Positions 1 to 11,799 of a DNA stretch of 11,799 bases are shown here, piece after piece; the first letter of the stretch is position 1, and every line of letters begins with the position of its first letter. Source of the DNA: a virus (lineage: Duplodnaviria > Heunggongvirae > Uroviricota > Caudoviricetes); the IMG/VR virus record IMGVR_UViG_2562617151_000001, positions 1 through 11,799 of that record; one strand, written 5' to 3'. The notes beneath the pieces are model-generated. The model was not told the origin of the DNA. It did no database searches and worked only from the letters and a program-made list of their open reading frames with translations. A program made the translations under genes and the position numbers.

Positions 1-1254
1 ATGCTGGAACAAATGGGCATTGCCGCGAAGCAAGCCTCGTATAAATTAGCGCAACTCTCCAGCCGCGAAAAAAATCGCGTGCTGGAAAAAATCGCCGATG
101 AACTGGAAGCACAAAGCGAAATCATCCTCAACGCTAACGCCCAGGATGTTGCTGACGCGCGAGCCAATGGCCTTAGCGAAGCGATGCTTGACCGTCTGGC
201 ACTGACGCCCGCACGGCTGAAAGGCATTGCCGACGATGTACGTCAGGTGTGCAACCTCGCCGATCCGGTGGGGCAGGTAATCGATGGCGGCGTACTGGAC
301 AGCGGCCTGCGTCTTGAGCGTCGTCGCGTACCGCTGGGGGTTATTGGCGTGATTTATGAAGCGCGCCCGAACGTGACGGTTGATGTCGCTTCGCTGTGCC
401 TGAAAACCGGTAATGCGGTGATCCTGCGCGGTGGCAAAGAAACGTGTCGCACTAACGCTGCAACGGTGGCGGTGATTCAGGACGCCCTGAAATCCTGCGG
501 CTTACCGGCGGGTGCCGTGCAGGCGATTGATAATCCTGACCGTGCGCTGGTCAGTGAAATGCTGCGTATGGATAAATACATCGACATGCTGATCCCGCGT
601 GGTGGCGCTGGTTTGCATAAACTGTGCCGTGAACAGTCGACAATCCCGGTGATCACAGGTGGTATAGGCGTATGCCATATTTACGTTGATGAAAGTGTAG
701 AGATCGCTGAAGCATTAAAAGTGATCGTCAACGCGAAAACTCAGCGTCCGAGCACATGTAATACGGTTGAAACGTTGCTGGTGAATAAAAACATCGCCGA
801 TAGCTTCCTGCCCGCATTAAGCAAACAAATGGCGGAAAGCGGCGTGACATTACACGCAGATGCAGCTGCACTGGCGCAGTTGCAGGCAGGCCCTGCGAAG
901 GTGGTTGCTGTTAAAGCCGAAGAGTATGACGATGAGTTTCTGTCATTAGATTTGAACGTCAAAATCGTCAGCGATCTTGACGATGCCATCGCCCATATTC
1001 GTGAACACGGCACACAACACTCCGATGCGATCCTGACCCGCGATATGCGCAACGCCCAGCGTTTTGTTAACGAAGTGGATTCGTCCGCTGTTTACGTTAA
1101 CGCCTCTACGCGTTTTACCGACGGCGGCCAGTTTGGTCTGGGTGCGGAAGTGGCGGTAAGCACACAAAAACTCCACGCGCGTGGCCCAATGGGGCTGGAA
1201 GCACTGACCACTTACAAGTGGATCGGCATTGGTGATTACACCATTCGTGCGTAA
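1..1254 (+). CDS. proA: gamma-glutamyl phosphate reductase (glutamate-5-semialdehyde dehydrogenase), complete, 417 aa
   Basis: ORF 1..1254 translates to [30 protein letters not shown]...[13 protein letters not shown], which I recognise as E. coli ProA at full length (aldehyde dehydrogenase fold). Its position immediately upstream of thrW matches the K-12 arrangement proA-thrW. Confidence 0.96.
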
Positions 1255-1368
1255 ATAAAACCGGGTGATGCAAAAGTAGCCATTTGATTCACAAGGCCAT
1301 TGACGCATCGCCCGGTTAGTTTTAACCTTGTCCACCGTGATTCACGTTCGTGAACATGTCCTTTCAGG

Positions 1369-1444
1369 GCCGATATAGCTCAGTTGGTAGAGCAGCGCAT
1401 TCGTAATGCGAAGGTCGTAGGTTCGACTCCTATTATCGGCACCA
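1369..1444 (+). tRNA. thrW: tRNA-Thr, anticodon CGU
   Basis: 76-nt sequence GCCGATATAGCTCAGTTGGTAGAGCAGCGCATTCGTAATGCGAAGGTCGTAGGTTCGACTCCTATTATCGGCACCA read directly: 7-bp acceptor stem GCCGATA/TATCGGC, D-loop AGTTGGTAG, anticodon loop TTCGTAA (anticodon CGT), T-arm GGTTCGACTCC, encoded CCA. thrW is the known integration target of P22-family integrases. Confidence 0.95.
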
Positions 1445-1458
1445 TTTAAATCAATAAG

Positions 1459-2622
1459 TTACACATCATTAGTACCTTCCTTATTTTTTGACTGGGACAA
1501 ATTTGGGACCGATGGGTTCAGGATCGAGTCTATTTGCCGTGCGTGTTCGGTAAGGTGATTAGGTGCGAGGTGAGCATATCGACGAACCATTTCGATAGAC
1601 TCCCAGCCTCCCATTTCCTGTAACACTGACAACGGGACACCGGCTTGAACCAGCCAACTTGCCCAGGTGTGTCTCAAGTCATGAAATCTGAAATCATCAA
1701 TACCAGCTCGTCTCAGCGCCGCTTTCCAGGCTGTGTTTGCGTCATATCGCATCTTCCTGACTGTTGGCGCTTTCGTTCCGTCTGGTTTGGTACAGCTTTC
1801 CTTGTACACAAATACCCAATGGTGATGATTCCCGATTTGTTTTTTCAATACGCGACATGCAGTATCATTCAGCGCAACGCCAATTGCGCGGTTTGATTTA
1901 CTCTCTTCCGGGTTTATCCATGCCACCCGGCGCTGCATATCTATTTGTTGCCATTCAAGGTTGATGATGTTCGAGCGTCTTAAGCCTGTTGCCAGTGCAA
2001 ATTCAACAACAGACTTTAATGGCTCCGGACATTCATCAATCAGCCTTTGTGCTTCATGAGGCTCCAGCCAGCGGATCCGTTTATTCTTTGGTTGAGGCAC
2101 TTTAATAATTGGTGCCTTATCCAGCATTTTCCATTCACGCTCTGCGGCTCTTAGTAGGGCCTTTATAAATGAAAGATGCGTAGCCTTCGTTGCAACGGAC
2201 GCTGGTTTTGGCGTGTATTCTGGAACAGGTTTCCCTTTTTTTCTGCATGCTTCTGCCCTGAGTTTCCAGTTTTCCTCATGACGCCGGTTCGTCATTTTCT
2301 GCATTGCTGAATAAATTTTTGATTCAGTAATGTCTCTTAGTTGCATTCCTGCGAAATGTTGAAGCCAGAATCCGATCCGGCTTTTGTCATCGTCCAGTGA
2401 TTTTTTATGTGCTTTCTCTTCAAGCCACCTGACACACGCTTCCTCGAACGTTATATCAGGTATTTCACCAAGTTTGCTGACCCGCCATGCTTCAGCCTTT
2501 AGCTTGTCATGGAGTTCTGTCGCCTGCCTTTTGTCCTTTGTTCCAAGAGACTGTTTAAATCTTTTACCGTTCGGCAATGTGAAACTGGCGTACCATATTT
2601 CACCTCTGCGGAAGAGTGACAT
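1459..2622 (-). CDS. int: phage integrase, tyrosine recombinase, P22 Int-like, 387 aa
   Basis: ORF translation [47 protein letters not shown]...[39 protein letters not shown] matches my recollection of P22 integrase almost end to end, including the C-terminal R..H..R..Y catalytic region. It is adjacent to the tRNA target; stop TAA at 1461-1459. Confidence 0.95.
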
Positions 2623-2849
2623 TTTCTTTCCTCTGTTATGCCATCACCCGCGCTCACCTGGACAGTATGCAGCGGAGACTGAAGAGCCGCAATGCAGGCT
2701 TGTCGTGTTGTGAGGTAAGGAGATTTATTCTTAGTGGGATCTTTGCGTGTTGCCTGAAGACGCCCTGTGCGTATCCAGTTAATGGCAGTCGGTCTGGATA
2801 TCTTGAGAAAATGACAGGCCTCATCGAGTGTGAGGCTGTATGGCTCCAT
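2499..2849 (-). CDS. xis: excisionase (P22 Xis-like), 116 aa
   Basis: The internal ATG at 2849-2847 gives [57 protein letters not shown]..., a P22-type Xis with a helix-turn-helix. The 28 codons upstream in the track ORF look like a read-through artefact. The ATG overlaps the stop of the upstream gene as TAATG. The 3' end overlaps int by 124 nt in another frame. Confidence 0.8.
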
Positions 2850-3154
2850 TATTTCACCTCTTGCTGTGACATTGTTGAAAAATGGATACCAGCTCGTTGC
2901 TGCCAGACGATCCAACCGAGAGTCATATCCCATGCCATGTATTCGTTATCGCCGTTTTTTGCTCTCCGACGATCTACTAAGTCACCGAAACGCTTTTCCA
3001 TGAATAATTCATAAGCTTCGCGTTCATCTGGTTCTACTTCCAGAGATCGGAGTGCGATTTCATAAGCACGGCGCTCAATATCGTCTCGCACGTCAAGGCT
3101 GCTGATACGCTCTTTAATTTCTTTAATCAGTTCTTTGTCGGTAAAAGTGGTCAT
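2849..3154 (-). CDS. YfdT-like prophage early-left protein, 101 aa, function unknown
   Basis: ORF MTTFTDKELIKEIKERISSLDVRDDIERRAYEIALRSLE...; its position and length fit the CPS-53 yfdT slot (from memory). Start ATG 3154-3152 overlaps the stop of the upstream gene as TAATG; its own stop overlaps the xis start. Confidence 0.7.
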   Translation of the reverse strand: MTTFTDKELIKEIKERISSLDVRDDIERRAYEIALRSLEVEPDEREAYELFMEKRFGDLVDRRRAKNGDNEYMAWDMTLGWIVWQQRAGIHFSTMSQQEVK

Positions 3155-3516
3155 TATGCTCCAGCCTCCGGTGCTTTTGGCATTACTGCCCAGTGAGTGA
3201 TATTGACGTTTTCAAGGTCCCCGACCTGAAATGTCCACTGCCATTCTCCGGTTTCTTTTTGTCCCCAGGTGTACCAGAGAGAACGCCAGCCAATTAGCCA
3301 GCCTTCTCCGTTAGCATCGAATAACAAAACACTTTCATTTGCTGGTGGCAGTTCAGTTGACACTGGTATTACTTTGTTTTCCTGTGCTGCACATTTAGCT
3401 TCAAGCGCATCGAATTTACGCACCAGGTATTCAGCATCTGTTTCATTTACTTTCAGATCTCGCGGTACACATCTCCCACGAAGAAACCCTTCCATTTCGA
3501 AAACATTCATGCGCAT
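3154..3516 (-). CDS. YfdS-like prophage early-left protein, 120 aa, function unknown
   Basis: ORF MRMNVFEMEGFLRGRCVPRDLKVNETDAEYLVRKFDALEAK...THWAVMPKAPEAGA. Coupled to neighbours: the upstream gene's TGA (3509-3507) overlaps ATG codon 3 of this ORF, and its stop overlaps the downstream start. Confidence 0.7.
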   Translation of the reverse strand: MRMNVFEMEGFLRGRCVPRDLKVNETDAEYLVRKFDALEAKCAAQENKVIPVSTELPPANESVLLFDANGEGWLIGWRSLWYTWGQKETGEWQWTFQVGDLENVNITHWAVMPKAPEAGA

Positions 3517-4043
3517 TTGCGTAACTCCGATAACTCGTTAAAGCGTTCCATAAACATCCCGTAGGCATGGCCCGGTGCCAGTGGAATCACGTTGAACATC
3601 TCTGTTGCCGGGATACCTTCCAGTACAGGCCAGAAAGAGCCATCATCAAGCCCGAGATCGCGGCGTTCGGTTGCCAGCATGATGAGATCGGCATATTTCA
3701 CGGGCGTACTCATAACTGGGGGTAACCCGTATTTCTCACGGATTACGGCGTCTATTTTTTCTTCCATTTGTTTATAGTCAGGAAGAAGGCGTTTCAGTGG
3801 TGCGGGAATGTCCTGACAATACGCTTCTGTTGCATCATGCATTAACGCTTCGAAAGCAAACTCCTGCGGTACCAGCTGGCTGCAAAGCACCGCATGTTGG
3901 GCGACGCTGTAGAAGTGTGAAAGATGCCCTGCAAAGCGACAGATATTTGAGAGGGAAACTGCGATATCGTTAATCACGATGTCGTCTTTATTTATCCTGT
4001 CATAATAAAAATGCTTCCCGGAAAAAGTTTTAATAAATGACAT
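3507..4043 (-). CDS. HD-domain phosphohydrolase, YfdR-like (putative 5'-nucleotidase), 178 aa
   Basis: Start chosen at MSFIKTFSGKHFYY (ATG 4043-4041), preceded by GGAG about 8 nt upstream; the track ORF starts 9 codons earlier without an SD. HD signature visible: ...HLSHFYSVAQHAVL...EALMHDATEAY.... The length matches my recollection of K-12 YfdR. Confidence 0.8.
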   Translation of the reverse strand: MSFIKTFSGKHFYYDRINKDDIVINDIAVSLSNICRFAGHLSHFYSVAQHAVLCSQLVPQEFAFEALMHDATEAYCQDIPAPLKRLLPDYKQMEEKIDAVIREKYGLPPVMSTPVKYADLIMLATERRDLGLDDGSFWPVLEGIPATEMFNVIPLAPGHAYGMFMERFNELSELRKCA

Positions 4044-4170
4044 TTTGTTCTCCACGTATATGCGCTGCACCGCGCTGAATTCTGGTAAAAGGAAGCCCTC
4101 ACCATCCGGTGATTATTGAGTTAATTACGTTTCCATAAATGCCCCCGCAGGGGCATTTGCAGTAATGAAA

Positions 4171-4995
4171 TCAGGCGGTGAAAGTACCAATAAAGGTTTC
4201 GACTTTGCTGTCTTTGAATTTCTCAACAAGCAGATCACGAAATTCGTTAGCCATTTCTTCCTGCACTGCTTCCAGCTGAATAATGCGCAGAACCAGTACA
4301 GGGCGATCACCAGTGATAATGCTGAGTCGTAATTTAAATGGACGTTCTTTCAGGCCTTCAAACGGAACGCATTTAAATTCAAATGCCACTGGCATAATGT
4401 CTTTGGTCTTCGCTTCGACAGACTCCATCAGGGAGCGTTTGCCGCTGAAGTCATTGTCTTCAAAATCAGCAGTCTGGTTCGCTTCAATTGTGATTTTACG
4501 GACTGCCGCAGCCGCTTTTGTTGCCTGAATGGCGTCACCATTAGCATCAAAGCCCACAAGGTAGTCGGCCCAGTCTTCAATCCATTCTGCCAGTGACTTC
4601 TGGGAGTTACGCTCGCCGTTAACAGACAACAGAGCAGAGAACGGTGCTGTCTTTTTCAGTTTGAGAGTGGCGGTGTTATCTGCGTGACCTGGTTCATCAA
4701 TAGTACCCAGGTTAAGCACACTGACGGCACGCATATTATCAGCATCGATAAAGCAGCGGGTGCCTTCATCTGCAAGATCTTTAGAATAACGGGTAAAGTC
4801 ATCGATGCTGGCAGTGGAAAGCGCACCACGGAAACGGAAGCGATTTAAATTAAATTTTTCCAGATCATGAATGCGGAAATTCTCAGGCAATGCCACAGCA
4901 TCGGCACCAATCTTACTGATAATTTCATTAACACCCTGAGCAGAAATAAGGGCATGGATTTGATTAATTGCGGTTGCGTCTAAGTTCTGAGACAT
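4171..4995 (-). CDS. YfdQ-like protein (I recall this as the DUF2303 family), 274 aa
   Basis: [60 protein letters not shown]...; SD GAGGA about 6 nt upstream of ATG 4995-4993. The order yfdP-Q-R-S-T-like is the same as in CPS-53. Confidence 0.8.
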
Positions 4996-5060
4996 AATAA
5001 GTCCTCACTATATAAAGATATTCAGTGATGAGATAAATAATCAGTTAATTAAAAACGATA

Positions 5061-5423
5061 TTAACGACCTGCTGCGCGGAGTTTTCCGTCAGGTTCACCG
5101 GCAAGAGTCAGTAACTGTCCCTGGTCTTCCTGCAGAATAGTCAGGCGACCACCGCGATTGACATACATCGGCGTTTCGGTGGTGTCTTCTTCGGAAATTT
5201 TCCCGCGGTTAGTCGGGCGAACATATGAGAGTTTGTGTTTGATTTTCACACGGTTCTCATCAAATGGTTCGATTTCCAGGTTGAGTGAGACCTTACCTTT
5301 GGTTTTCGTGTTCATCACACCGGAAGCGACTTCACTGAGAACTGCGCCGATTTTGGTTTCAAATACGCCGCCGTCCAGCTCCCCGATAAATGCATGCACA
5401 TCAGTACTGCGTTCGCTAGCCAT
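5061..5423 (-). CDS. YfdP-like prophage protein, 120 aa; the track ORF is N-terminally over-extended
   Basis: Start placed at MASERSTDVHAFIGELDGGVFETKIGAVLSEV (ATG 5423-5421) because GAGGAG lies about 8 nt upstream. The 106 codons upstream in the track ORF are R/C/P-rich low-complexity translation of GC-rich non-coding DNA. Confidence 0.65.
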   Translation of the reverse strand: MASERSTDVHAFIGELDGGVFETKIGAVLSEVASGVMNTKTKGKVSLNLEIEPFDENRVKIKHKLSYVRPTNRGKISEEDTTETPMYVNRGGRLTILQEDQGQLLTLAGEPDGKLRAAGR

Positions 5424-5439
5424 TTTGCTGCTCCTCATC

Positions 5440-5760
5440 ATATCGACCCTGCAAGGCCGATTAGTTTCTCCACAAAACAGAGAAGAACACCTGCGGTGGC
5501 AGCCGCCCGGATGGATTGGGTTATGAGCCCGTCGTCCGGTGATGCTCTTCTCTGTTTTGTAAAAAGGACGGTACCAGCCGGAAGCAAGGGTACAAACTGG
5601 TACCGCCGGGACTACACACAGCATAAAGTTGTGGTGCCGGGTGCCTCCCGGTGCCTGGCGAAGGTTGCACACCAGACGGGTGGGTATCCACAGAAGGTCG
5701 ACTGTCAGCCTCAACCTTAACCCGCGTGCGCTGAGCCGCATTCACCACAACGCTAAGAAT
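5440..5760. other. GC-rich structured non-coding block; candidate structured RNA or relic of a foreign element
   Basis: No credible ORF in any frame (all translations are R/P/C-rich). Contains a perfect 15-bp inverted repeat (5472-5486 with 5546-5560), a 9-bp stem (5569-5577 with 5597-5605) and long-range 9-nt complementarity (5628-5636 with 5743-5751). Visibly more GC-rich than the flanking phage DNA. Confidence 0.3.
5472..5560. repeat. perfect 15-bp inverted repeat ACAAAACAGAGAAGA / TCTTCTCTGTTTTGT separated by a 59-nt GC-rich spacer
   Basis: Read directly: arm 5472-5486 is the exact reverse complement of 5546-5560; 2 further complementary bases lie inside after one mismatch. Confidence 0.85.
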
Positions 5761-5824
5761 TCTCTCTGGTTGAAAATACTTAGCTGTTATGTGCCTGCTT
5801 TTAGCCACATCAGGCGAGGTGGAC

Positions 5825-5876
5825 CTGGTTATTCCCCAACAACAAGGATTCGGTTAATCTGGTTATCCCCAACAAC
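5825..5876 (+). repeat. tandem direct repeat CTGGTTAT(T)CCCCAACAAC x2, 34-bp period, immediately upstream of the 144-aa ORF
   Basis: Copy 1 at 5825-5843 and copy 2 at 5859-5876 differ by one extra T; a partial CTGGTT copy lies at 5766-5771. Copy 2 ends 5 nt before the AAGGA SD of the ORF starting at 5892. Confidence 0.8.
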
Positions 5877-5891
5877 GCAAAAGGAAAAGAA

Positions 5892-6326
5892 ATGTCCGGT
5901 AATATCTATACGCTGTACAAATCCCACTGTGAAAATGTTGGAAAGTATCGGGGCATTGAAATCAGTGGGGTAGTGTCATCAGTCGAAATAAGCAAAGTTG
6001 AATCAAGGGCAACATTACTTACTCTTCTGGACCTTGTCTTACATGAGCACCGGAAGAAATTCGGCACTCCCTATAATCAGTTGAATGGGAAAAAAGCTCT
6101 GGTTCACCTTATTCTGATGAAGCATCACTGGATGCCAAAACAGATTAATGAGATGAAATTTGATGAACTTCTTCTTTCAATTCAGGATGAATTCACGCTT
6201 GATAAAATAAGCGTAACCGCCCAGAAATTTTTAGATTATCGAGACTGGAGATCACAAATTCATCACTTTGATGATTTTGACGAAAATGAATGGGATCCTA
6301 ATTTGTCTGCACAATATCTAAAGTAA
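5892..6326 (+). CDS. hypothetical protein, 144 aa, no recognisable family; moron-like, opposite strand to the early-left operon
   Basis: ATG 5892 preceded by AAGGA with a 6-nt spacer; stop TAA 6324-6326. Protein MSGNIYTLYKSHCENVGKYRGIEISGVVSSVEISKVESRATLLTLLDLVLHEHRKKFGTPYNQ... has protein-like composition (K/E/D/H-rich, ordinary hydrophobic content). AT-rich codon usage contrasts with the neighbouring GC-rich block. Confidence 0.7.
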   Translation: MSGNIYTLYKSHCENVGKYRGIEISGVVSSVEISKVESRATLLTLLDLVLHEHRKKFGTPYNQLNGKKALVHLILMKHHWMPKQINEMKFDELLLSIQDEFTLDKISVTAQKFLDYRDWRSQIHHFDDFDENEWDPNLSAQYLK

Positions 6327-6504
6327 CATCCTGTGATAAAACCGTGATTTCCTGATCCAGTTTTTTTAAGGAGTCTATTGTTTCCTGTCGATAAGACAGC
6401 ACTTCACGAAGCTGGTTTATAGCTGCCAGCTTCTTTGCCATCCACTCGTAAATTTCCTCATTTGTGTATCCGGGCGCGACGATTTTGGGTTCTGTTTTGT
6501 GCAT
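6298..6504 (-). CDS. hypothetical small protein, 68 aa; first gene downstream of the putative P_L (the position of N)
   Basis: Start at MHKTEPKIVAPGYTNEEIYEWMAKKLAAINQLREVL... (ATG 6504-6502), preceded by a strong SD GAGGAGG about 7 nt upstream; the track ORF begins 5 codons earlier. The 3' end overlaps the 144-aa ORF by 29 nt (convergent). Confidence 0.6.
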   Translation of the reverse strand: MHKTEPKIVAPGYTNEEIYEWMAKKLAAINQLREVLSYRQETIDSLKKLDQEITVLSQDVTLDIVQTN

Positions 6505-6562
6505 TTCACACCTCCTCAAGTTATCAGTTACTTGTTGATGGGGACCAGATTGTTAAAGAGCT

Positions 6563-6590
6563 AAGCGTCCTGTAGGGCGCTTTTTTGTTG
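6563..6590 (+). terminator. intrinsic (rho-independent) terminator-like hairpin plus T-tract
   Basis: AAGCGTCC-TGTA-GGGCGCTT stem (8 bp including one G-U) followed by TTTTTT at 6581-6586. On the minus strand the stem is preceded by an A-tract and followed by a U-poor sequence, so it is mainly plus-strand and at most weakly bidirectional. Confidence 0.55.
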
Positions 6591-6669
6591 CTAACGAATC
6601 ACCCTAGACTTTATATGCCCCAGGCGGCTACTTCGTGGGCGTCCTGCCTGTTCGTTATCTTTGATATAA

Positions 6670-6740
6670 AATCTAACTTAACTTAGTTATTATGGCAAGA
6701 GAAAACACCAAACTTTTCTTAGTTCGGTGCCTTAGTTAGA
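6670..6740 (-). promoter_or_regulatory. putative O_L / P_L region (leftward early promoter with repressor operators)
   Basis: Heptamer CTTAGTT occurs at 6682, 6718 and 6731, the same motif as in the cI-cro intergenic region. Minus-strand candidate promoter: -35 TTGCCA (complement of 6693-6698), 17-nt spacer containing AACTTAGTT, -10 TAGATT (complement of 6670-6675). Confidence 0.4.
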
Positions 6741-6751
6741 GAAGAGAGGTC

Positions 6752-7378
6752 TTAGAGTTCGTATTGAACTCCTTTGACTACACCAATGATAAGGCAATTA
6801 CCATTGATAGGGATGTTGGGATACCGAGGATTTAATGGCACTAAAAACTTTTGAGGGCCATCGATGACTAATTTTTTTACTGTAGCTTCGTTTGTTCCAT
6901 CAAGTCGAGCGATGACTATTTTTCCATGACGAGGTTCTGCATCTGGATCTACAATCACTGTTGCGCCTTCTGGTATTGTTGGGAGGCCATTAGGGTTAGT
7001 CATGGAGTCACCTTTAACCTCTAATGCAAATGAGTTATCACCAATCTTTAATGATGTATCTACCCACTTGTCCACTTCACTAAACACTTCTGCTGCCCTG
7101 CACTCAGTAAACTGCCCAGCCTGAACCCACGATATTACAGGAACTCTGCGCATGTTTGTGACGAGTTTGCCTTCAAACTCAGCACCATAAAGAATGTAAT
7201 CTATTGACGTATTGAAGAACTTCGCTAATTTCGAAAGTGCCTCCCCACCAGGGGTATTGATGTCTTTCTCCCAGTACCCCACAGCAACGTCGCTTACTCC
7301 ACAAAATTTACCCAATTCTTTCTGGGACGTTCCGGTAACTCTTCTCAGAGCTTTTATACGCTGACCAACCGTTTCCAT
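6752..7378 (-). CDS. cI: prophage repressor, CI / P22 C2-like (N-terminal HTH plus C-terminal S24 LexA-like autopeptidase domain), 208 aa
   Basis: ORF METVGQRIKALRRVTGTSQKELGKFCGVSDVAVGYWEKD... (HTH) ... ISWVQAGQF...LEVKGDSMTNP...ATVIVDPDAEPRHGKIVIARLDG.EATVKKL...GNCLIIGVV. Ser-Lys dyad context and overall architecture match the lambda CI / P22 C2 class. Divergent from cro. Confidence 0.92.
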   Translation of the reverse strand: METVGQRIKALRRVTGTSQKELGKFCGVSDVAVGYWEKDINTPGGEALSKLAKFFNTSIDYILYGAEFEGKLVTNMRRVPVISWVQAGQFTECRAAEVFSEVDKWVDTSLKIGDNSFALEVKGDSMTNPNGLPTIPEGATVIVDPDAEPRHGKIVIARLDGTNEATVKKLVIDGPQKFLVPLNPRYPNIPINGNCLIIGVVKGVQYEL

Positions 7379-7396
7379 AGGAGCACCATTTCTTGA

Positions 7397-7468
7397 ATTG
7401 CTAAGTAATCTTAGTTTTTATTGACCAAAGATAGATTTGTAATTAGCATCTAATAAAACTTAGTTTGG
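7397..7468 (+). promoter_or_regulatory. putative O_R / P_R region between cI and cro
   Basis: Near-palindrome CTAAGTAATCTTAG at 7401-7414; CTTAGTT at 7410 and 7459; 9-mer AACTTAGTT at 7457-7465 is identical to 6680-6688. Candidate P_R: -35 TTGACC 7421-7426, 17-nt spacer, -10 TAGCAT 7444-7449, then SD GGAGG 7467-7471 and cro ATG 7476. Confidence 0.45.
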
Positions 7469-7475
7469 AGGGCGT

Positions 7476-7676
7476 ATGACAACTGACGATATCGAAAGCT
7501 ACTTCGGCAGTATTGAGAAAGTTGCTGCTTTTTTCGGCATAACAACTGAAGCCGTTTATCAGTGGCGAAACCGTCCGGGCCAGTTAATTCCAAAAGGACG
7601 TGCAGCAGAAGCTGCATATAGAACTTGCGGACGGTTGCCATTTAAACCTGAGCTTTATGAAAAATCTAATGGATAA
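7476..7676 (+). CDS. cro: Cro-like transcriptional regulator (Cro / YdaS-type HTH), 66 aa
   Basis: [69 protein letters not shown]; a small HTH protein divergently transcribed from the repressor, with an SD in front. Confidence 0.85.
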   Translation: MTTDDIESYFGSIEKVAAFFGITTEAVYQWRNRPGQLIPKGRAAEAAYRTCGRLPFKPELYEKSNG

Positions 7677-8265
7677 ATCGATTAACAGAAACCACAGAAC
7701 GATGAGGCTAACCGTGGGTAAGCATCACTGGAAAGTAGAAAAACAGCCTGAGTGGTACGTGAAAGCTGTCAGAAAAACTATCGCAGCGTTGCCGGGTGGT
7801 TACGCTGAAGCAGCTGACTGGCTGGATGTAACAGAGAACGCATTATTTAACCGCCTTCGTGCCGATGGCGATCAGATTTTCCCGCTGGGATGGGCAATGA
7901 TTTTGCAACGTGCTGGTGGAACTCACTTCATTGCTGACGCTGTGGCGCAGTCTGCAAATGGCGTCTTTGTGTCTCTTCCTGATGTCGAGGATGTGGACAA
8001 CGCCGATATCAACCAACGCCTGCTGGAGGTCATTGAACAGATCGGCAGTTATTCAAAACAGATTCGTTCAGCAATTGAAGACGGTGTAGTGGAACCGCAT
8101 GAGAAGACAGCAATTAACGACGAGCTGTACCTCTCAATTTCGAAGCTGCAGGAGCATGCAGCACTGGTCTACAAAATTTTTTGCATTTCAGAAAGTAATG
8201 ACGCCCGCGAGTGTGCAGCTCCGGGCGCCGTGGCGTGTCGTGACTGTGGAGAAACTAACGCATGA
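7657..8265 (+). CDS. CII-like phage regulatory protein (YdaT / CP76-type); start uncertain
   Basis: ORF ...[73 protein letters not shown]...; lies directly after cro as in lambdoid layouts. Candidate starts are ATG 7657 and ATG 7669 (the latter 5 nt upstream of the cro stop); the track's 7600 start is a GTG only 1 nt after an SD-like AAAGGA and is unlikely. Confidence 0.65.
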
Positions 8266-8440
8266 ACAGTTTAACAACACACTACCGTCGCTCGCAACTG
8301 ATTGCGCTTCCTGTACCGGGTGGAAAAGCGAAGGTGGAGTATTGCTATGCAGTAAATGTACCAGGTGGCAGGGTAATTGTAACCCACAGCTTTGCAGAGT
8401 GGGCTGTGGGTGATTTTAACCGGCAAAAGGAGACAGTCCT

Positions 8441-8620
8441 TTGCGACAAGTTAACCGCTGGTTCAAAGATCACTACGGAGTACCCGTCAGAGTCATTCGT
8501 TGGGAGCCGGAAACACAACGGGTTATCTACCTCCGCGAAGGCTATGAGCATGAATGCTTCAGTCCGCTCGAACAGTTTCGTCGTAAATTCAGGGAAATAG
8601 AGGTCGGTCATGAGCACTAA
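8441..8620 (+). CDS. possible small protein (59 aa) with TTG start; alternative to the ATG-initiated 112-aa ORF 8262..8600
   Basis: AAGGAG sits 8 nt upstream of TTG 8441. The frame gives [59 protein letters not shown], a protein-like composition, ending at TAA 8618-8620 (overlapping the initiator start by 11 nt). It is absent from the ATG/GTG-based track. Confidence 0.35.
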
Positions 8621-9581
8621 ATTAACCGGCTATGTATGGGATGGTTGCGCTGCGTCAGGCATGAAATTATCCAGCGTGGCAATTATGGCCCGCCTGGCTG
8701 ATTTCAGTAATGACGAAGGTGTGTGCTGGCCATCAATTGAAACCATTGCCCGTCAGATTGGCGCGGGGATGAGTACCGTCAGAACGGCTATCGCACGGCT
8801 GGAAGCAGAAGGCTGGTTAACGCGTAAGGCGCGTCGCCAGGGTAACCGCAATGCGTCGAATGTTTATCAGCTTAACGTTGCGAAGCTTCAGGCAGCGGCA
8901 TTTTCTCAATTGTCAGATTCTGACCCGTCAAAATCTGACGCATCAAAATCTGACCCGTCAAAATCTGACGCATCAAAATCTGACCCGTCAAAATTTGATG
9001 CGTCGAAATCTGGCAAAAAAGCGGGTTTTCACCCGTCAGAATCTGGCGGGGATCCGTCAGTAAAATCAAAACATGATCCGTCAGATAAAAAAACTTCTCG
9101 TCCGGACGCTTCGCAACCGGACACGCAGACGGCTGAACAGGAGTTTTTAACTCGCCATCCTGATGCGGTTGTATTCAGCCCTAAAAAGCGCCAGTGGGGA
9201 ACGCAGGATGATTTGACCTGCGCACAGTGGCTCTGGAAAAAAATCATCGCCCTGTACGAGCAGGCCGCCGAATGTGACGGCGAGGTGGTTCGTCCCAAAG
9301 AACCGAACTGGACAGCCTGGGCAAACGAAATTCGCCTGATGTGTGTGCAGGATGGTCGTACTCACAAACAAATCTGCGAGATGTACAGCCGCGTCAGCCG
9401 CGATCCGTTCTGGTGCCGTAACGTGCTCAGCCCGTCGAAGCTGCGGGAAAAATGGGATGAGCTTTCCCTGCGCTTATCGCCGTCCGTCAGCACGTACACA
9501 GAAAAACGCGAAGACCCGTACTTCAAAGCCAGTTACGACAACGTGGACTACAGCCAGATCCCGGCAGGATTCAGGGGGTGA
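8610..9581 (+). CDS. phage replication initiation protein (lambda O-like role; N-terminal HTH, internal iteron-encoded linker), 323 aa
   Basis: N-terminus [70 protein letters not shown] is a typical helix-turn-helix replication-protein domain. The internal SDPSKSDASKSDPSKSDASK stretch is encoded by a 15-bp iteron array, the lambdoid ori-within-initiator arrangement. SD AGAGG precedes ATG 8610. Confidence 0.85.
   Translation: MSTKLTGYVWDGCAASGMKLSSVAIMARLADFSNDEGVCWPSIETIARQIGAGMSTVRTAIARLEAEGWLTRKARRQGNRNASNVYQLNVAKLQAAAFSQLSDSDPSKSDASKSDPSKSDASKSDPSKFDASKSGKKAGFHPSESGGDPSVKSKHDPSDKKTSRPDASQPDTQTAEQEFLTRHPDAVVFSPKKRQWGTQDDLTCAQWLWKKIIALYEQAAECDGEVVRPKEPNWTAWANEIRLMCVQDGRTHKQICEMYSRVSRDPFWCRNVLSPSKLREKWDELSLRLSPSVSTYTEKREDPYFKASYDNVDYSQIPAGFRG
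8919..9008. repeat. iteron array: six tandem 15-bp units alternating TCTGACCCGTCAAAA / TCTGACGCATCAAAA; probable prophage origin of replication
   Basis: Units at 8919, 8934, 8949, 8964, 8979 and 8994 (the last degenerate), with degenerate copies flanking (8911-8918, 9009-9023) and GATCCGTCAG repeated at 9051 and 9075, followed by an A-rich stretch at 9084-9095. Located inside the initiator CDS. Confidence 0.85.
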
Positions 9582-9583
9582 TC

Positions 9584-10072
9584 ATGAGTCTTTTGAATGA
9601 AGTTCAGAAATACATTGAAGCCCATCCGGGGTGTACTTCCGGAGACATTGCGGATGCTTTTGCAGGTTACTCACGGCAGCGCGTTCTGCAGTCAGCAAGC
9701 AAGTTACGTCAGAGTGGGCGTGTGGCTCACCGTTGTGAAGGGGATACACGCAGACATTTCCCGCGCCTGACTGAGAGAGCGCAGGAGGCGGAACCGCAAC
9801 CAGTTCGTGAAACCAGACCTGTGCGCAATTTCTATGTCGGCACTAACGACCCGCGGGAGATTTTGTGCCTGACCCGCCAGGCTGAAGAACTGGAGTCCAG
9901 GGGCTTATACCGTCGTGCTGCAACGGTGTGGATGGCGGCATTCCGTGAAAGCCACTCCCAGCCAGAACGAAACAATTTTCTGGCGCGTCGTGAGCAGTGT
10001 TTACGGAAAAGCAGCAAGCGCGCTGTATCGAGTGATGAGTGGTATCTGTCAGGGAATTACGTGGGGGCGTAA
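9584..10072 (+). CDS. PerC-family (Pch-like) regulator domain protein with an N-terminal winged-helix-like region, 162 aa
   Basis: C-terminal LTRQAEELESRGLYRRAATVWMAAFRESHSQPERNNFLARREQCLRK matches the PerC/Pch signature (LE..GLWRRAA..W ... RR..C). ATG 9584 is preceded by GGGGG; the GTG 9578 in the track is less likely. The stop overlaps the next start as TAATG. Confidence 0.6.
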   Translation: MSLLNEVQKYIEAHPGCTSGDIADAFAGYSRQRVLQSASKLRQSGRVAHRCEGDTRRHFPRLTERAQEAEPQPVRETRPVRNFYVGTNDPREILCLTRQAEELESRGLYRRAATVWMAAFRESHSQPERNNFLARREQCLRKSSKRAVSSDEWYLSGNYVGA

Positions 10073-10398
10073 TGACGACGTTAACTCAATGCCAGCAGCA
10101 GGTGCTGGATATGCTGATTTCTTATCAGAAAGAGCGTGGCTTTCCGCCAACCAATCAGGAGGTGGCAACCATGCTGGGATACCGTTCAGTGAATGCAGCG
10201 GTAGAGCATCTTCGCGCACTGGAGAAAAAAGGCGTCATCACGATAAAGCGTGGCGTGGCCCGGGGGATAACGCTTCATACCGCGGTGAAGGACGACGACA
10301 GCGAGGCGGTCGGGATTATCCGCGCACTGCTTGCCGGTGAGGAAAACGCAAGGTTGCGTGCAACCCACTGGTTACATGAGAGGGGCCTGAAAGTATGA
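10072..10398 (+). CDS. LexA N-terminal DNA-binding-domain protein without the S24 peptidase domain, 108 aa
   Basis: MTTLTQCQQQVLDMLISYQKERGFPPTNQEVATMLGYRSVNAAVEHLRALEKKGVITIKRGVARGITL aligns by eye with the LexA DNA-binding domain (LexA: ...[55 protein letters not shown]...). No Ser/Lys peptidase domain follows. Confidence 0.7.
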   Translation: MTTLTQCQQQVLDMLISYQKERGFPPTNQEVATMLGYRSVNAAVEHLRALEKKGVITIKRGVARGITLHTAVKDDDSEAVGIIRALLAGEENARLRATHWLHERGLKV

Positions 10399-10784
10399 AG
10401 CTGATCCTGCCTTTTCCGCCCAGCGTGAACACGTACTGGCGACACCCCAACAAAGGGGCGTTTGCAGGTAAGAGCCTGATAAGCGCGGCGGGGCGCAAAT
10501 TCCAGAGCGCGGCGTGTGCAGCAATAGTTGAGCAGTTACGTCGTCTGCCAAAACCAACGTCGGCACCTGCTTCAGTGGAGATCGTGTTGTTTCCTCCGGA
10601 TAACCGGATCCGCGATCTGGACAACTATAACAAGGCGCTGTTTGACGCCCTGACCCACGCGGGTGTGTGGGAAGACGACAGCCAGGTGAAAAGAATGCTG
10701 GTGGAGTGGGGACCGGTTATCCCGGAAGGGAAGGTCGAGATCACTATCAGTAAGTACGAGAAAACGGCGGGTGCAGCCGCCTGA
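10395..10784 (+). CDS. rusA: Holliday-junction resolvase RusA (crossover junction endodeoxyribonuclease), 129 aa
   Basis: MKLILPFPPSVNTYWRH...DNRIRDLDNYNKALFDALTHAGVWEDDSQV... follows the RusA pattern (PP..N.YYRH ... RRDLDN..K...DALT.AG.W.DD.QV). ATGA overlap with the upstream stop; typical nin-region gene. Confidence 0.88.
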   Translation: MKLILPFPPSVNTYWRHPNKGAFAGKSLISAAGRKFQSAACAAIVEQLRRLPKPTSAPASVEIVLFPPDNRIRDLDNYNKALFDALTHAGVWEDDSQVKRMLVEWGPVIPEGKVEITISKYEKTAGAAA

Positions 10785-10803
10785 TCAAGAGGAGAAACGA
10801 AGT

Positions 10804-11247
10804 ATGAATAATCTGATGGTCATTGATGGTATTGAAGTTCGTCGTGATGCTTATGGGCGTTACAGCCTGAACGATCTGCATCGCGCAGCAGTAGCATCTG
10901 GTGCAAATGCCAGAACCAAGGAGCCGGGAAAGTTTCTTTCCAGCCAACAAACTGTTGAGCTTGTTCATGAATTGACCAACACCCAGAATTTGGGTGTTGA
11001 CCCGGTGAGTGTGATTCATGGGGGAAATGAACGGGGAACTTATGTCTGCAAGGAACTGGTGTATGCCTATGCAATGTGGATCAGCCCGTCATTCCATCTG
11101 AAGGTGATCCGTACTTTCGACATGGTAACCAGCGCACCGGAAAAATTATCCGGACAGGCTGCTGACAAGATGCAGGCTGGTGTGATTCTGCTGGACTTTA
11201 TGCGTCGGGAGTTACCCGAACCGCGACAAGCCCTATATCCGGAGTAA
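10804..11247 (+). CDS. KilA-N domain protein, 147 aa
   Basis: Start at MNNLMVIDGIEVRRDAYGRYSLNDLHRAA (ATG 10804, SD AAGAGGAG 9 nt upstream); the GTG 10771 in the track is unlikely. ...GTYVCKELVYAYAMWISPSFHLKVIRTF fits the conserved KilA-N C-terminal block. Confidence 0.7.
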   Translation: MNNLMVIDGIEVRRDAYGRYSLNDLHRAAVASGANARTKEPGKFLSSQQTVELVHELTNTQNLGVDPVSVIHGGNERGTYVCKELVYAYAMWISPSFHLKVIRTFDMVTSAPEKLSGQAADKMQAGVILLDFMRRELPEPRQALYPE

Positions 11248-11250
11248 TCC

Positions 11251-11799
11251 ATGCATCGTATAGACACGAAAACCGCGCAGAAGGATAAGTTCGGCGCGGG
11301 TAAGAACGGTTTTACCCGTGGTAACCCCCAGACAGGCACGCCTGCCACCGATCTGGATGATGACTACTTTGACATGTTGCAGGAGGAGCTTTGCAGCGTG
11401 GTGGAGGCATCCGGTGCCAGCCTAGAGAAGGGGCGGCACGACCAGTTGCTTACCGCGCTTCGTGCGCTGCTGTTAAGCCGCAAGAATCCGTTTGGCGATA
11501 TCAAATCGGACGGCACGGTGAAAACGGCTCTCGAAAACCTTGGTTTGGGAGAAGCGGCGAAAAGGGATGTGGGCACAGGAGATAATCAGATACCGGATAT
11601 GGGAGCATTCGCTTCTGGTTCGGGATGGTTCAGGCTACCAGGTGGATATATTGTTCAGTTTGGCACTTTTTCAGGAAACACGACCCGCTTTATCAGTGGA
11701 CACTTCCCTATACCATTCCCTAATCAGCCGATGGTTTCAGTCAGTGTTATGTCTGATGCCGTTCAGTCAGACCCGTCGAATCCTCGCCCCGCAGGTTTT
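11251..11799 (+). CDS. tail-fibre-like protein, N-terminal 183 codons; 3' end beyond the window
   Basis: ATG 11251 with GGAG 7 nt upstream; open to the window end (absent from the track because there is no stop). Translation [74 protein letters not shown]...[21 protein letters not shown] resembles phage tail-fibre proteins by recollection; the family assignment is tentative. Confidence 0.5.

Follow-up and report, generated by a model that had tools for sequence, protein, structure and literature searches.

If the first gene behind the early-left promoter of a lambdoid prophage does not encode the antiterminator N, what does it encode, and by what means would the operon behind that promoter be read through? 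The question is raised by an 11,799-nucleotide (nt) stretch of DNA (positions 1 to 11,799 of the IMG/VR virus record IMGVR_UViG_2562617151_000001, Caudoviricetes), the whole of which is called the window here, and within it by an open reading frame (ORF) for 68 amino acids (aa), located at 6298-6504 (minus strand) as the gene that comes first behind the putative promoter P_L. An earlier note, made from the sequence alone, held that its product does not look like N and offered two explanations: either antitermination is protein-independent at this locus, for which a structured block at 5424-5891 was pointed to, or the protein is a different early regulator. We propose that the 68-aa gene is a genuine accessory cassette gene of the YdfC family and that the P_L operon is read through by means of RNA or host factors, a reading to which we give a probability of roughly 0.5. 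The features on which the argument draws are the following:

6673-6686 (CTAACTTAACTTAG) and 6709-6722 (CAAACTTTTCTTAG): O_L operator-like sites of the form CTAAG-N4-CTTAG
6670 to 6698, minus strand: P_L candidate promoter from a promoter scan, with -35 TTGCCA, a 17-nt spacer and -10 TAGATT
6590-6658, minus strand: conserved 5' leader RNA folding into a three-way junction, which consists of the outer stem P1 (6 base pairs, bp), an invariant core and the hairpin P3 (5 bp)
6563-6582, both strands: G+C-rich hairpin, on the plus strand with a T-run behind it as intrinsic terminator for the ECs1072 gene, on the minus strand directly before boxA
6550-6561, minus strand: boxA-like GCTCTTTAACAA, resembling lambda nutL CGCTCTTAAAAA
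6511-6517, minus strand: Shine-Dalgarno sequence GAGGAGG, 6 nt 5' of the ATG
6298-6504, minus strand: gene for the 68-aa YdfC-family protein, with an ATG start; in the product, a conserved peptide at the N-terminus precedes a single long helix of the coiled-coil type

The ORF was found exactly as it had been described, with the same 68-aa sequence, its ATG start and a strong Shine-Dalgarno sequence at 6-nt spacing. A longer form of 73 aa with a TTG start (6519) is unlikely, since every diverged homologue starts at the N-terminus M-x-K-x-E-P. In a profile search, phrog_1744 was matched over residues 1-68 of 68 (E 4.8e-34), and BLASTP aligned 66 of the 68 residues with YdfC from the Qin prophage of K-12 at 39% identity (26/66 identical, E 9e-17). 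Comparison with phage genomes by tblastn returned two groups, the first consisting of near-identical copies in SfIV, Kati and relatives and the second of sequences that are about 39% identical and annotated as ydfC or YdfC family; both subgroups were retrieved together by one profile search. The family amounts to 109 cluster representatives at 50% identity, which keep the start motif and a similar length. Close variants of the gene show mainly synonymous differences, with a ratio of nonsynonymous to synonymous variation (pN/pS) of 0-0.18 from small counts, and the annotation by the Prokaryotic Genome Annotation Pipeline (PGAP) includes the ORF as a gene; in RefSeq its product is labelled 'hypothetical protein' and that of its convergent partner 'ECs1072 family phage-associated protein'. 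Given the full-length match to phrog_1744, the 109 family clusters, the synonymous bias of the variants and the PGAP call, the ORF is, as far as sequence can tell, a genuine gene rather than a chance reading frame.

Members of the family share a conserved N-terminal peptide (M-x-K-x-E-P-x-I-I-A-P-x-Y-x-x-E-E-L-x-x-W-M-x-x-K), behind which lies a variable, heptad-like helix. Among 59 members, at least 90% share each of the residues P6, W21, K25 and L32, and M1, K3, E5, P6, I8, A10, P11, Y13, E17, Y19, W21 and K25 are invariant in an alignment of 14 members. The AlphaFold2 model computed with this 14-sequence alignment has residues 1-14 extended and residues 15-67 in one helix of 53 residues, at a mean predicted local distance difference test score (pLDDT) of 86.7, which agrees with the helical character predicted for the protein beforehand. 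Profile matches of the family in the Protein Data Bank (PDB) are natural or designed coiled coils only, and in the longer family members (130-190 aa) that were inspected for informative fused domains none was recognisable. In Qin, in PPompW phages and prophages and in phage Tritos, ydfC belongs to the early-left operon that adjoins the repressor gene (dicA or cI), and in Qin, PPompW prophages and phage Tritos it is located upstream of the small RNA (sRNA) gene dicF and of dicB; in the window and in SfIV, the YdfC gene stands directly behind P_L. With full-length similarity, the N-terminal motif followed by a long helix (a class of about 65-75 aa) and the early-left location, we assign the 68-aa protein with high confidence to the YdfC family, that is, as a homologue of a known and uncharacterised prophage family.

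The arginine-rich N-terminal motif of N-type antiterminators is indeed missing, as had been remarked: the first 32 residues are free of arginine, the first arginine being R33, and the only earlier basic residues are H2, K3, K7, K24 and K25. Profile and structure searches, which the earlier note had suggested as a check, were run and gave no homology to N-like, Kil or cIII proteins. The Pfam families for N, Kil and CIII matched neither the window protein nor any of 59 family members, the PHROG N families gave no match for the 68-aa protein, and the scans for N, Kil and CIII homology also covered NCBIfam, PADLOC and PDB profiles. When the family profile was aligned by hhalign with lambda CIII, Kil and N, lambda N being the only explicit N comparator in this analysis, probabilities of 0.5%, 0.06% and 0.14%, respectively, were obtained, and Foldseek on the AlphaFold2 model returned nothing at E <= 0.001. 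What these profile, profile-profile and fold searches yielded with respect to the three proteins was coiled-coil noise only, which was discarded; none of them relates the protein to N, Kil or CIII, and we conclude with high confidence from these comparisons that the gene is not a homologue of any of the three.

The distribution of the gene bears on what it could do for the operon. Among 91 viral or phage loci that bear the leader RNA, a YdfC-family gene follows in 17; the other first genes found behind the leader encode Kil, a zinc-ribbon peptide or a 40-46-aa peptide or are, in SfV, orf33, and no gene is annotated over about 600-800 nt behind the leader in ST64B and phiNP. YdfC is thus found both with and without the leader, which for its part is mostly not accompanied by YdfC, so that the idea of a different early regulator finds no support in the distribution. 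Since the distribution of the protein is uncoupled from the conserved RNA signals that surround it in the window, we hold with moderate confidence that the protein is probably accessory cargo of the early-left operon and not the antiterminator of that operon.

The gene does not travel alone. Its partner is the convergent gene already named for its family:

5892-6326, plus strand: 144-aa ECs1072-family gene, convergent with the 68-aa gene, predicted all-alpha, low in G+C and moron-like

The convergent overlap described earlier is real, the 3' ends sharing 29 nt at 6298-6326. In all 10 of the 10 loci with a 97-100%-identical form of the 68-aa gene the ECs1072 gene lies beside it, and the module of both genes was detected in 404 of 5,426 complete E. 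coli genomes (about 7%). Judged from these occurrences the pair is an optional and exchangeable cassette, whose place of insertion is between the conserved leader and an STnc100-like sRNA. No convincing structural or defence-system match was obtained for the ECs1072 product. In related prophages (L108, at 6499-6993 on the plus strand, and L016), the cassette slot holds a single opposite-strand gene for a 164-aa product rich in hydrophobic residues, which is preceded by the same hairpin and boxA as in the window; an identification of this gene as sieB was rejected, as it belongs to phrog_6315, of unknown function. Just 5' of the ECs1072 gene, direct repeats CTGGTTAT(T)CCCCAACAAC were noticed at 5825-5843 and 5859-5876 (plus strand, 34 nt apart), which may be the binding site of a regulator; a consensus promoter scan at these repeats detected no promoter.

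As to how the gene might work, the cI-type repressor would keep it silent in the lysogen, and upon induction it would be the first gene to be transcribed from P_L. The product would act as a small oligomeric coiled-coil protein whose conserved N-terminal peptide would dock on a conserved host or phage partner, and it would serve as an accessory host-modulating function of the kind usual in an early-left operon, not as an N-type antiterminator.

A better candidate for the antiterminator, put forward here by analogy, consists of the leader at 6590-6658 together with the hairpin and boxA at 6550-6582, which had not been flagged before. The leader has an invariant core of about 25 nt (GGCAGGAYGCCCACGAAGUAGCYGCC). 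In an ungapped alignment, its stem P1 is seen with full compensation in three or more versions (CGAA.../...UUCG, UCAUC.../...GAUGA and CCACC.../...GGUGG), and the 5-bp hairpin P3 has many compensated versions; over the 14 leader pairs, 94% of the cells are paired as compared to 70.7 ± 1.0% after shuffling and 20-46% once the partners are slid, and compensatory double changes were observed at 10 of these pairs. RNAalifold recovers P1 and P3 independently. With a covariance model of the leader, a single copy was detected in the window (80.6 bits, E 4e-26) and no second ("R") copy, and a Providencia copy that had been held out of the model scores 67.6 bits. Nothing was found by this model in lambda nutL, in HK022 putL and putR or in Qin-type loci. 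Rfam 15 holds no match to the leader, and a full-text literature search for the core gave nothing relevant; an earlier mention elsewhere is conceivable.

In species-representative genomes, the model identified 59 loci at 68-92 bits, the genus names being those of Enterobacterales in all but two records, one of Pseudomonas and one of Chryseobacterium. Matches to 21 nt of the core in Alpha- and Betaproteobacteria, Gordonia and a haloarchaeon score 38 bits at most and look like coincidences in coding sequences, and they were set aside. By BLAST, the leader was located in 49 phage records (Escherichia, Shigella, Salmonella, Klebsiella, Citrobacter, Yersinia, Pantoea, Pectobacterium and Providencia), and a 14-nt core pattern picked out 120 IMG/VR stretches, of which 83 also have the flanking motif and represent 72 different versions. 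All annotated temperate phages that were inspected have the leader in the unannotated gap between the repressor gene and the early-left genes. A further copy lies in the T5-like virulent Providencia phage PR1 at 1501-1571 on the plus strand, in the terminal repeat and behind a strong promoter, which suggests that the leader RNA is not confined to temperate phages. Across 146 distinct contexts, 43% have a sigma-70 match of at least 9/12 within 60 nt upstream, as compared to 1% of control positions. The -10 hexamer in leader contexts usually ends 12-15 nt before P1, and the leader would therefore begin about 5-8 nt into the transcript. Furthermore, the alignment with SfV and SfIV delimits the element: repressor and operators differ from those of the window, identity begins a few bases past the -10 hexamer and, in SfV, where orf33 is the first gene, it ends exactly after the 69-nt block, right behind the P1 stem.

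Behind the leader, the minus strand carries the hairpin (6563-6582) and, 2 nt later, GCUCUUUAACAA, which we take to be identical to the E. coli rrn boxA core (UGCUCUUUAACAA) and which is close to the lambda nutL boxA CGCUCUUAAAAA as read from the lambda sequence. This boxA core (6550-6561) is the single exact match in the window, where simple chance would give about 0.001 according to our own arithmetic. The sole hairpin is on the 5' side of boxA, and no boxB-like hairpin was found 3' of boxA between P_L and the 68-aa gene. Variants CGCTCTTTAAAAA and CGCTCTTTAACAA stand at the corresponding position in related loci and in the T5-like Providencia phage, where the lambda-like boxA CGCUCUUUAAAAA lies behind the leader. 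The unit of hairpin and boxA follows the leader also in loci with other cassettes, which do not encode the 68-aa protein. In most loci with the leader, no boxA lies within 300 nt of it, and boxA would therefore be at most an accessory to the leader.

That the 68-aa gene stands behind a P_L was itself a supposition of the earlier note, and it is supported by the promoter-like site, by operator sites that flank cI and by the conserved leader, which follows early promoters in many phages. The P_L candidate overlaps operator-like repeats that it shares with O_R: the O_L sites match sites at 7401-7414 and 7450-7463, between cI and cro. The count of the operator motif over the whole window is not significant, the argument resting on its clustering at both ends of cI. 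Transcription would start at about 6662-6663.

Two overlapping features further down the operon determine what such a transcript would meet:

5558-5605, minus strand: intrinsic-terminator candidate in the P_L operon, a stem of 13 bp with CUUUUU behind it (z -2.25)
5558-5781, minus strand: STnc100-like sRNA region (Rfam RF02076, 42.3 bits, E 1.6e-6, full model coverage)

The genes from yfdP to int lie past the terminator candidate, whose equivalent in SfV is annotated as a terminator. The RF02076 score remains below the gathering score of 47, and the region is best regarded as a diverged relative of STnc100. The structured block at 5424-5891, which had been brought up as a possible antiterminator RNA, is probably not one: it contains this STnc100-like sRNA, which ends in a terminator, comparable to DicF behind ydfC in Qin, and is thus something to be read through. 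A termination-based immunity RNA of SfV was also rejected as the element at issue here, as the C4 and isrK RNAs lie in the P_R operon of SfV and are absent from the window. These isrK and C4-antisense-type RNAs occur in SfV at 6011-6199 on the plus strand, at or above the Rfam gathering scores, and have no counterpart in the window; the two phages, though related in other respects, are thus unlike in this second RNA module of the immunity type.

No N-like gene was found in the P_L operon, and this, together with the terminator candidate that has to be passed, makes the first of the two explanations offered earlier, protein-independent antitermination, plausible. Read-through of the operon would most likely need no phage protein: it would be brought about by the leader RNA, possibly with boxA and host Nus factors, in analogy to HK022 put. 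In favour of the leader in this role are its putL-like position, the lack of N, the downstream terminator, its nature as a self-contained module and its invariant core, and the last of these suggests a conserved host target. We tentatively go one step further, to a claim that we consider possible rather than probable, namely that the leader may represent a second, undescribed class of phage processive antiterminator RNA, analogous to put but unrelated to it, which would load on RNA polymerase at the start of the transcript and, in some phages, would act together with boxA and Nus factors. If so, it would explain how terminators are read through in a large group of N-less temperate phages of the Enterobacterales and even in a T5-like Providencia phage, and the 68-aa YdfC-family protein would be merely cargo behind the leader.

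Many lambdoid phages lack an N gene, and to our knowledge RNA-only antitermination has been found in one family alone, put. A widespread, covarying RNA at the position of put makes delayed-early expression of N-less lambdoid phages directly testable, and the main interest of the locus lies upstream of the gene, in the leader RNA; the protein alone is one more member of an uncharacterised family. The YdfC family is nevertheless part of the y-ome of K-12, and its context in the window yields hypotheses about it that can be tested: as first gene of an N-less early operon, as part of an exchangeable cassette and as a protein with a docking-type N-terminus.

The surroundings of this locus are those of an integrated phage. 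The window comprises proA, tRNA-Thr (CGT) at 1369-1444 on the plus strand and a lambdoid prophage, which is integrated at this tRNA gene adjoining proA and which contains, besides replication genes:

1459-2622, minus strand: P22-type integrase, together with an excisionase
minus strand: yfdT-, yfdS-, yfdR-, yfdQ- and yfdP-like genes, the yfdQ-like gene coding for DUF2303
6752-7378, minus strand: cI-type repressor with helix-turn-helix and S24 peptidase domains
7476-7676, plus strand: cro of the P22-Cro type
about 7700-8265: CII gene (CP76-type, PF06892)

Among sequenced phages, Escherichia phage Kati and Shigella phage SfIV come closest, with 98-99% identity over 5400-6760. The replication gene at 8610-9581 on the plus strand contains tandem DNA repeats at 8851-9063, which code for peptide repeats of the SDPSKSDASK type and are the source of spurious microRNA matches in Rfam; they look like origin iterons inside an O-like gene.

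Several points weigh against an accessory YdfC gene behind an RNA-driven operon. YdfC is uncharacterised in the literature (PMC5069750; bioRxiv 10.1101/2025.03.22.644768), and a function has been assigned to it by neither experiment nor homology. The mode of action, a docking peptide on a coiled coil, is deduced solely from conservation and the model of a monomer, and translation of the ORF is likewise inferred. With regard to the leader, the antitermination role is drawn from analogy, and this RNA might rather serve as a 5' stabiliser, as a ligand-sensing aptamer or as a regulatory RNA that is processed. The constant pairing with ECs1072 (10/10) could mean that the two genes act jointly and not on a host target. 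Lastly, a role of the protein in transcription elongation is conceivable, as it sits immediately behind boxA, in the position of lambda N.

The thought of joint action leads to a first alternative, which we consider unlikely: the 68-aa and ECs1072 genes would be one two-gene system, for instance an exclusion or defence gene with its modulator, in which antisense transcription gives reciprocal lysogenic and lytic control. Besides the invariable presence of ECs1072 next to the near-identical forms of the gene, this is favoured by the 29-nt 3' overlap, by the position of the plus-strand terminator (6563-6582) beyond the whole of the 68-aa gene, so that the ECs1072 transcript would be antisense to all of it, by the low G+C content typical of morons and by the direct repeats CTGGTTAT(T)CCCCAACAAC upstream of ECs1072. 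The convergent layout as such is ordinary for lambdoid phages, because N and sieB of lambda are arranged alike; mutual transcriptional interference, for which the earlier note had named the two genes as candidates, may occur.

There is likewise only a small chance that the protein is a functional analogue of CIII, which would inhibit a host protease such as FtsH and thereby stabilise the CII-like activator encoded at about 7700-8265. A CII-family gene (PF06892) is present and no cIII is recognisable, the protein is similar to CIII in size, helicity and operon position, and the best hhalign alignment, which is non-significant, sets GYTNEEIYEWMAKK over CIII residues 12-25, GCPSESLLERITRK. However, the probability of this alignment is the above-mentioned 0.5% and its E value 0.13 for a single comparison, the Pfam family Lambda_CIII matches 0/59 members of the family, and the cassette is optional among phages with the same leader.

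That the protein might be a non-canonical analogue of N, acting on RNA polymerase or Nus factors at the hairpin and boxA or inhibiting Rho, appears highly improbable to us, even though its gene takes the place of N at the head of the P_L operon, an exact boxA lies 45 nt upstream of it, the operon has no other N candidate and a terminator candidate stands in the way. The lack of the arginine-rich motif and of any N homology speaks against it, as does the fact that the hairpin and boxA unit accompanies other cassettes without YdfC, that 74/91 leader loci are without YdfC and that YdfC of the Qin type is second or third in its operon, with no boxA or leader nearby. Finally, the notion that the ORF is untranslated and the region acts only as RNA, be it the 5' untranslated region of P_L or the antisense 3' untranslated region of ECs1072, draws on the lack of direct support for translation and on the position of the entire ORF between the stop codon and the terminator of ECs1072, and it is dismissed as scarcely credible in view of the strong Shine-Dalgarno sequence at ideal spacing, a frame, length and N-terminal motif retained down to 26-40% identity over 109 clusters and a pN/pS of 0-0.18 in close variants.

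The reading of an accessory YdfC-family gene behind a put-like leader can be set beside four known systems. In lambda, N is the first gene after P_L, as is the 68-aa gene here, boxA lies between the promoter and N (nutL), as it does in the window, and N and sieB are convergent and abutting, just as the first gene of the window has a convergent next gene. By contrast, the boxB hairpin of lambda is 3' of boxA and the hairpin of the window 5' of it, the 68-aa protein has neither the arginine-rich motif nor any sequence or profile similarity to N, and its distribution is uncoupled from the RNA sites. With lambda CIII, the protein has in common that both are small helical early-left proteins of phages that encode a CII-type activator, again with no significant similarity between them.

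For the gene, the system to compare is found in Qin, where YdfC is homologous to the 68-aa protein, belongs to the same length class and bears the same N-terminal motif. The operon ydfA-ydfB-ydfC-dicF-dicB is an early-left operon under repressor control, as is that of the window, and the DicF sRNA gene, which ends in a terminator, is located downstream of ydfC where the window has the STnc100-like RNA (PMC5069750). However, ydfC is the third gene from its promoter in Qin and the window gene the first, Qin lacks the leader RNA and boxA, both of which the window has upstream of the gene, and the convergent ECs1072 partner distinguishes the window gene from ydfC of Qin.

For the leader, the system to compare is HK022 put (about 70 nt): both are structured RNAs immediately 3' of P_L in N-less lambdoid phages (PMC9378689), and both are self-contained, with variable sequence directly behind them. 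An identification of the leader as a put RNA was nonetheless rejected. The shared strings CGAAC.GGC and AGGAUGA are suggestive, but the families that BLAST gathers around the two are disjoint, the covariance model is silent at the put sites, its best match in HK022 reaching 9.2 bits in an unrelated place, and the architecture is different: put consists of two open stems in a V shape, whereas the leader is a closed three-way junction in which P1 encloses two arms. Moreover, HK022 carries both putL and putR, whereas one leader copy and no R copy were found in the window.

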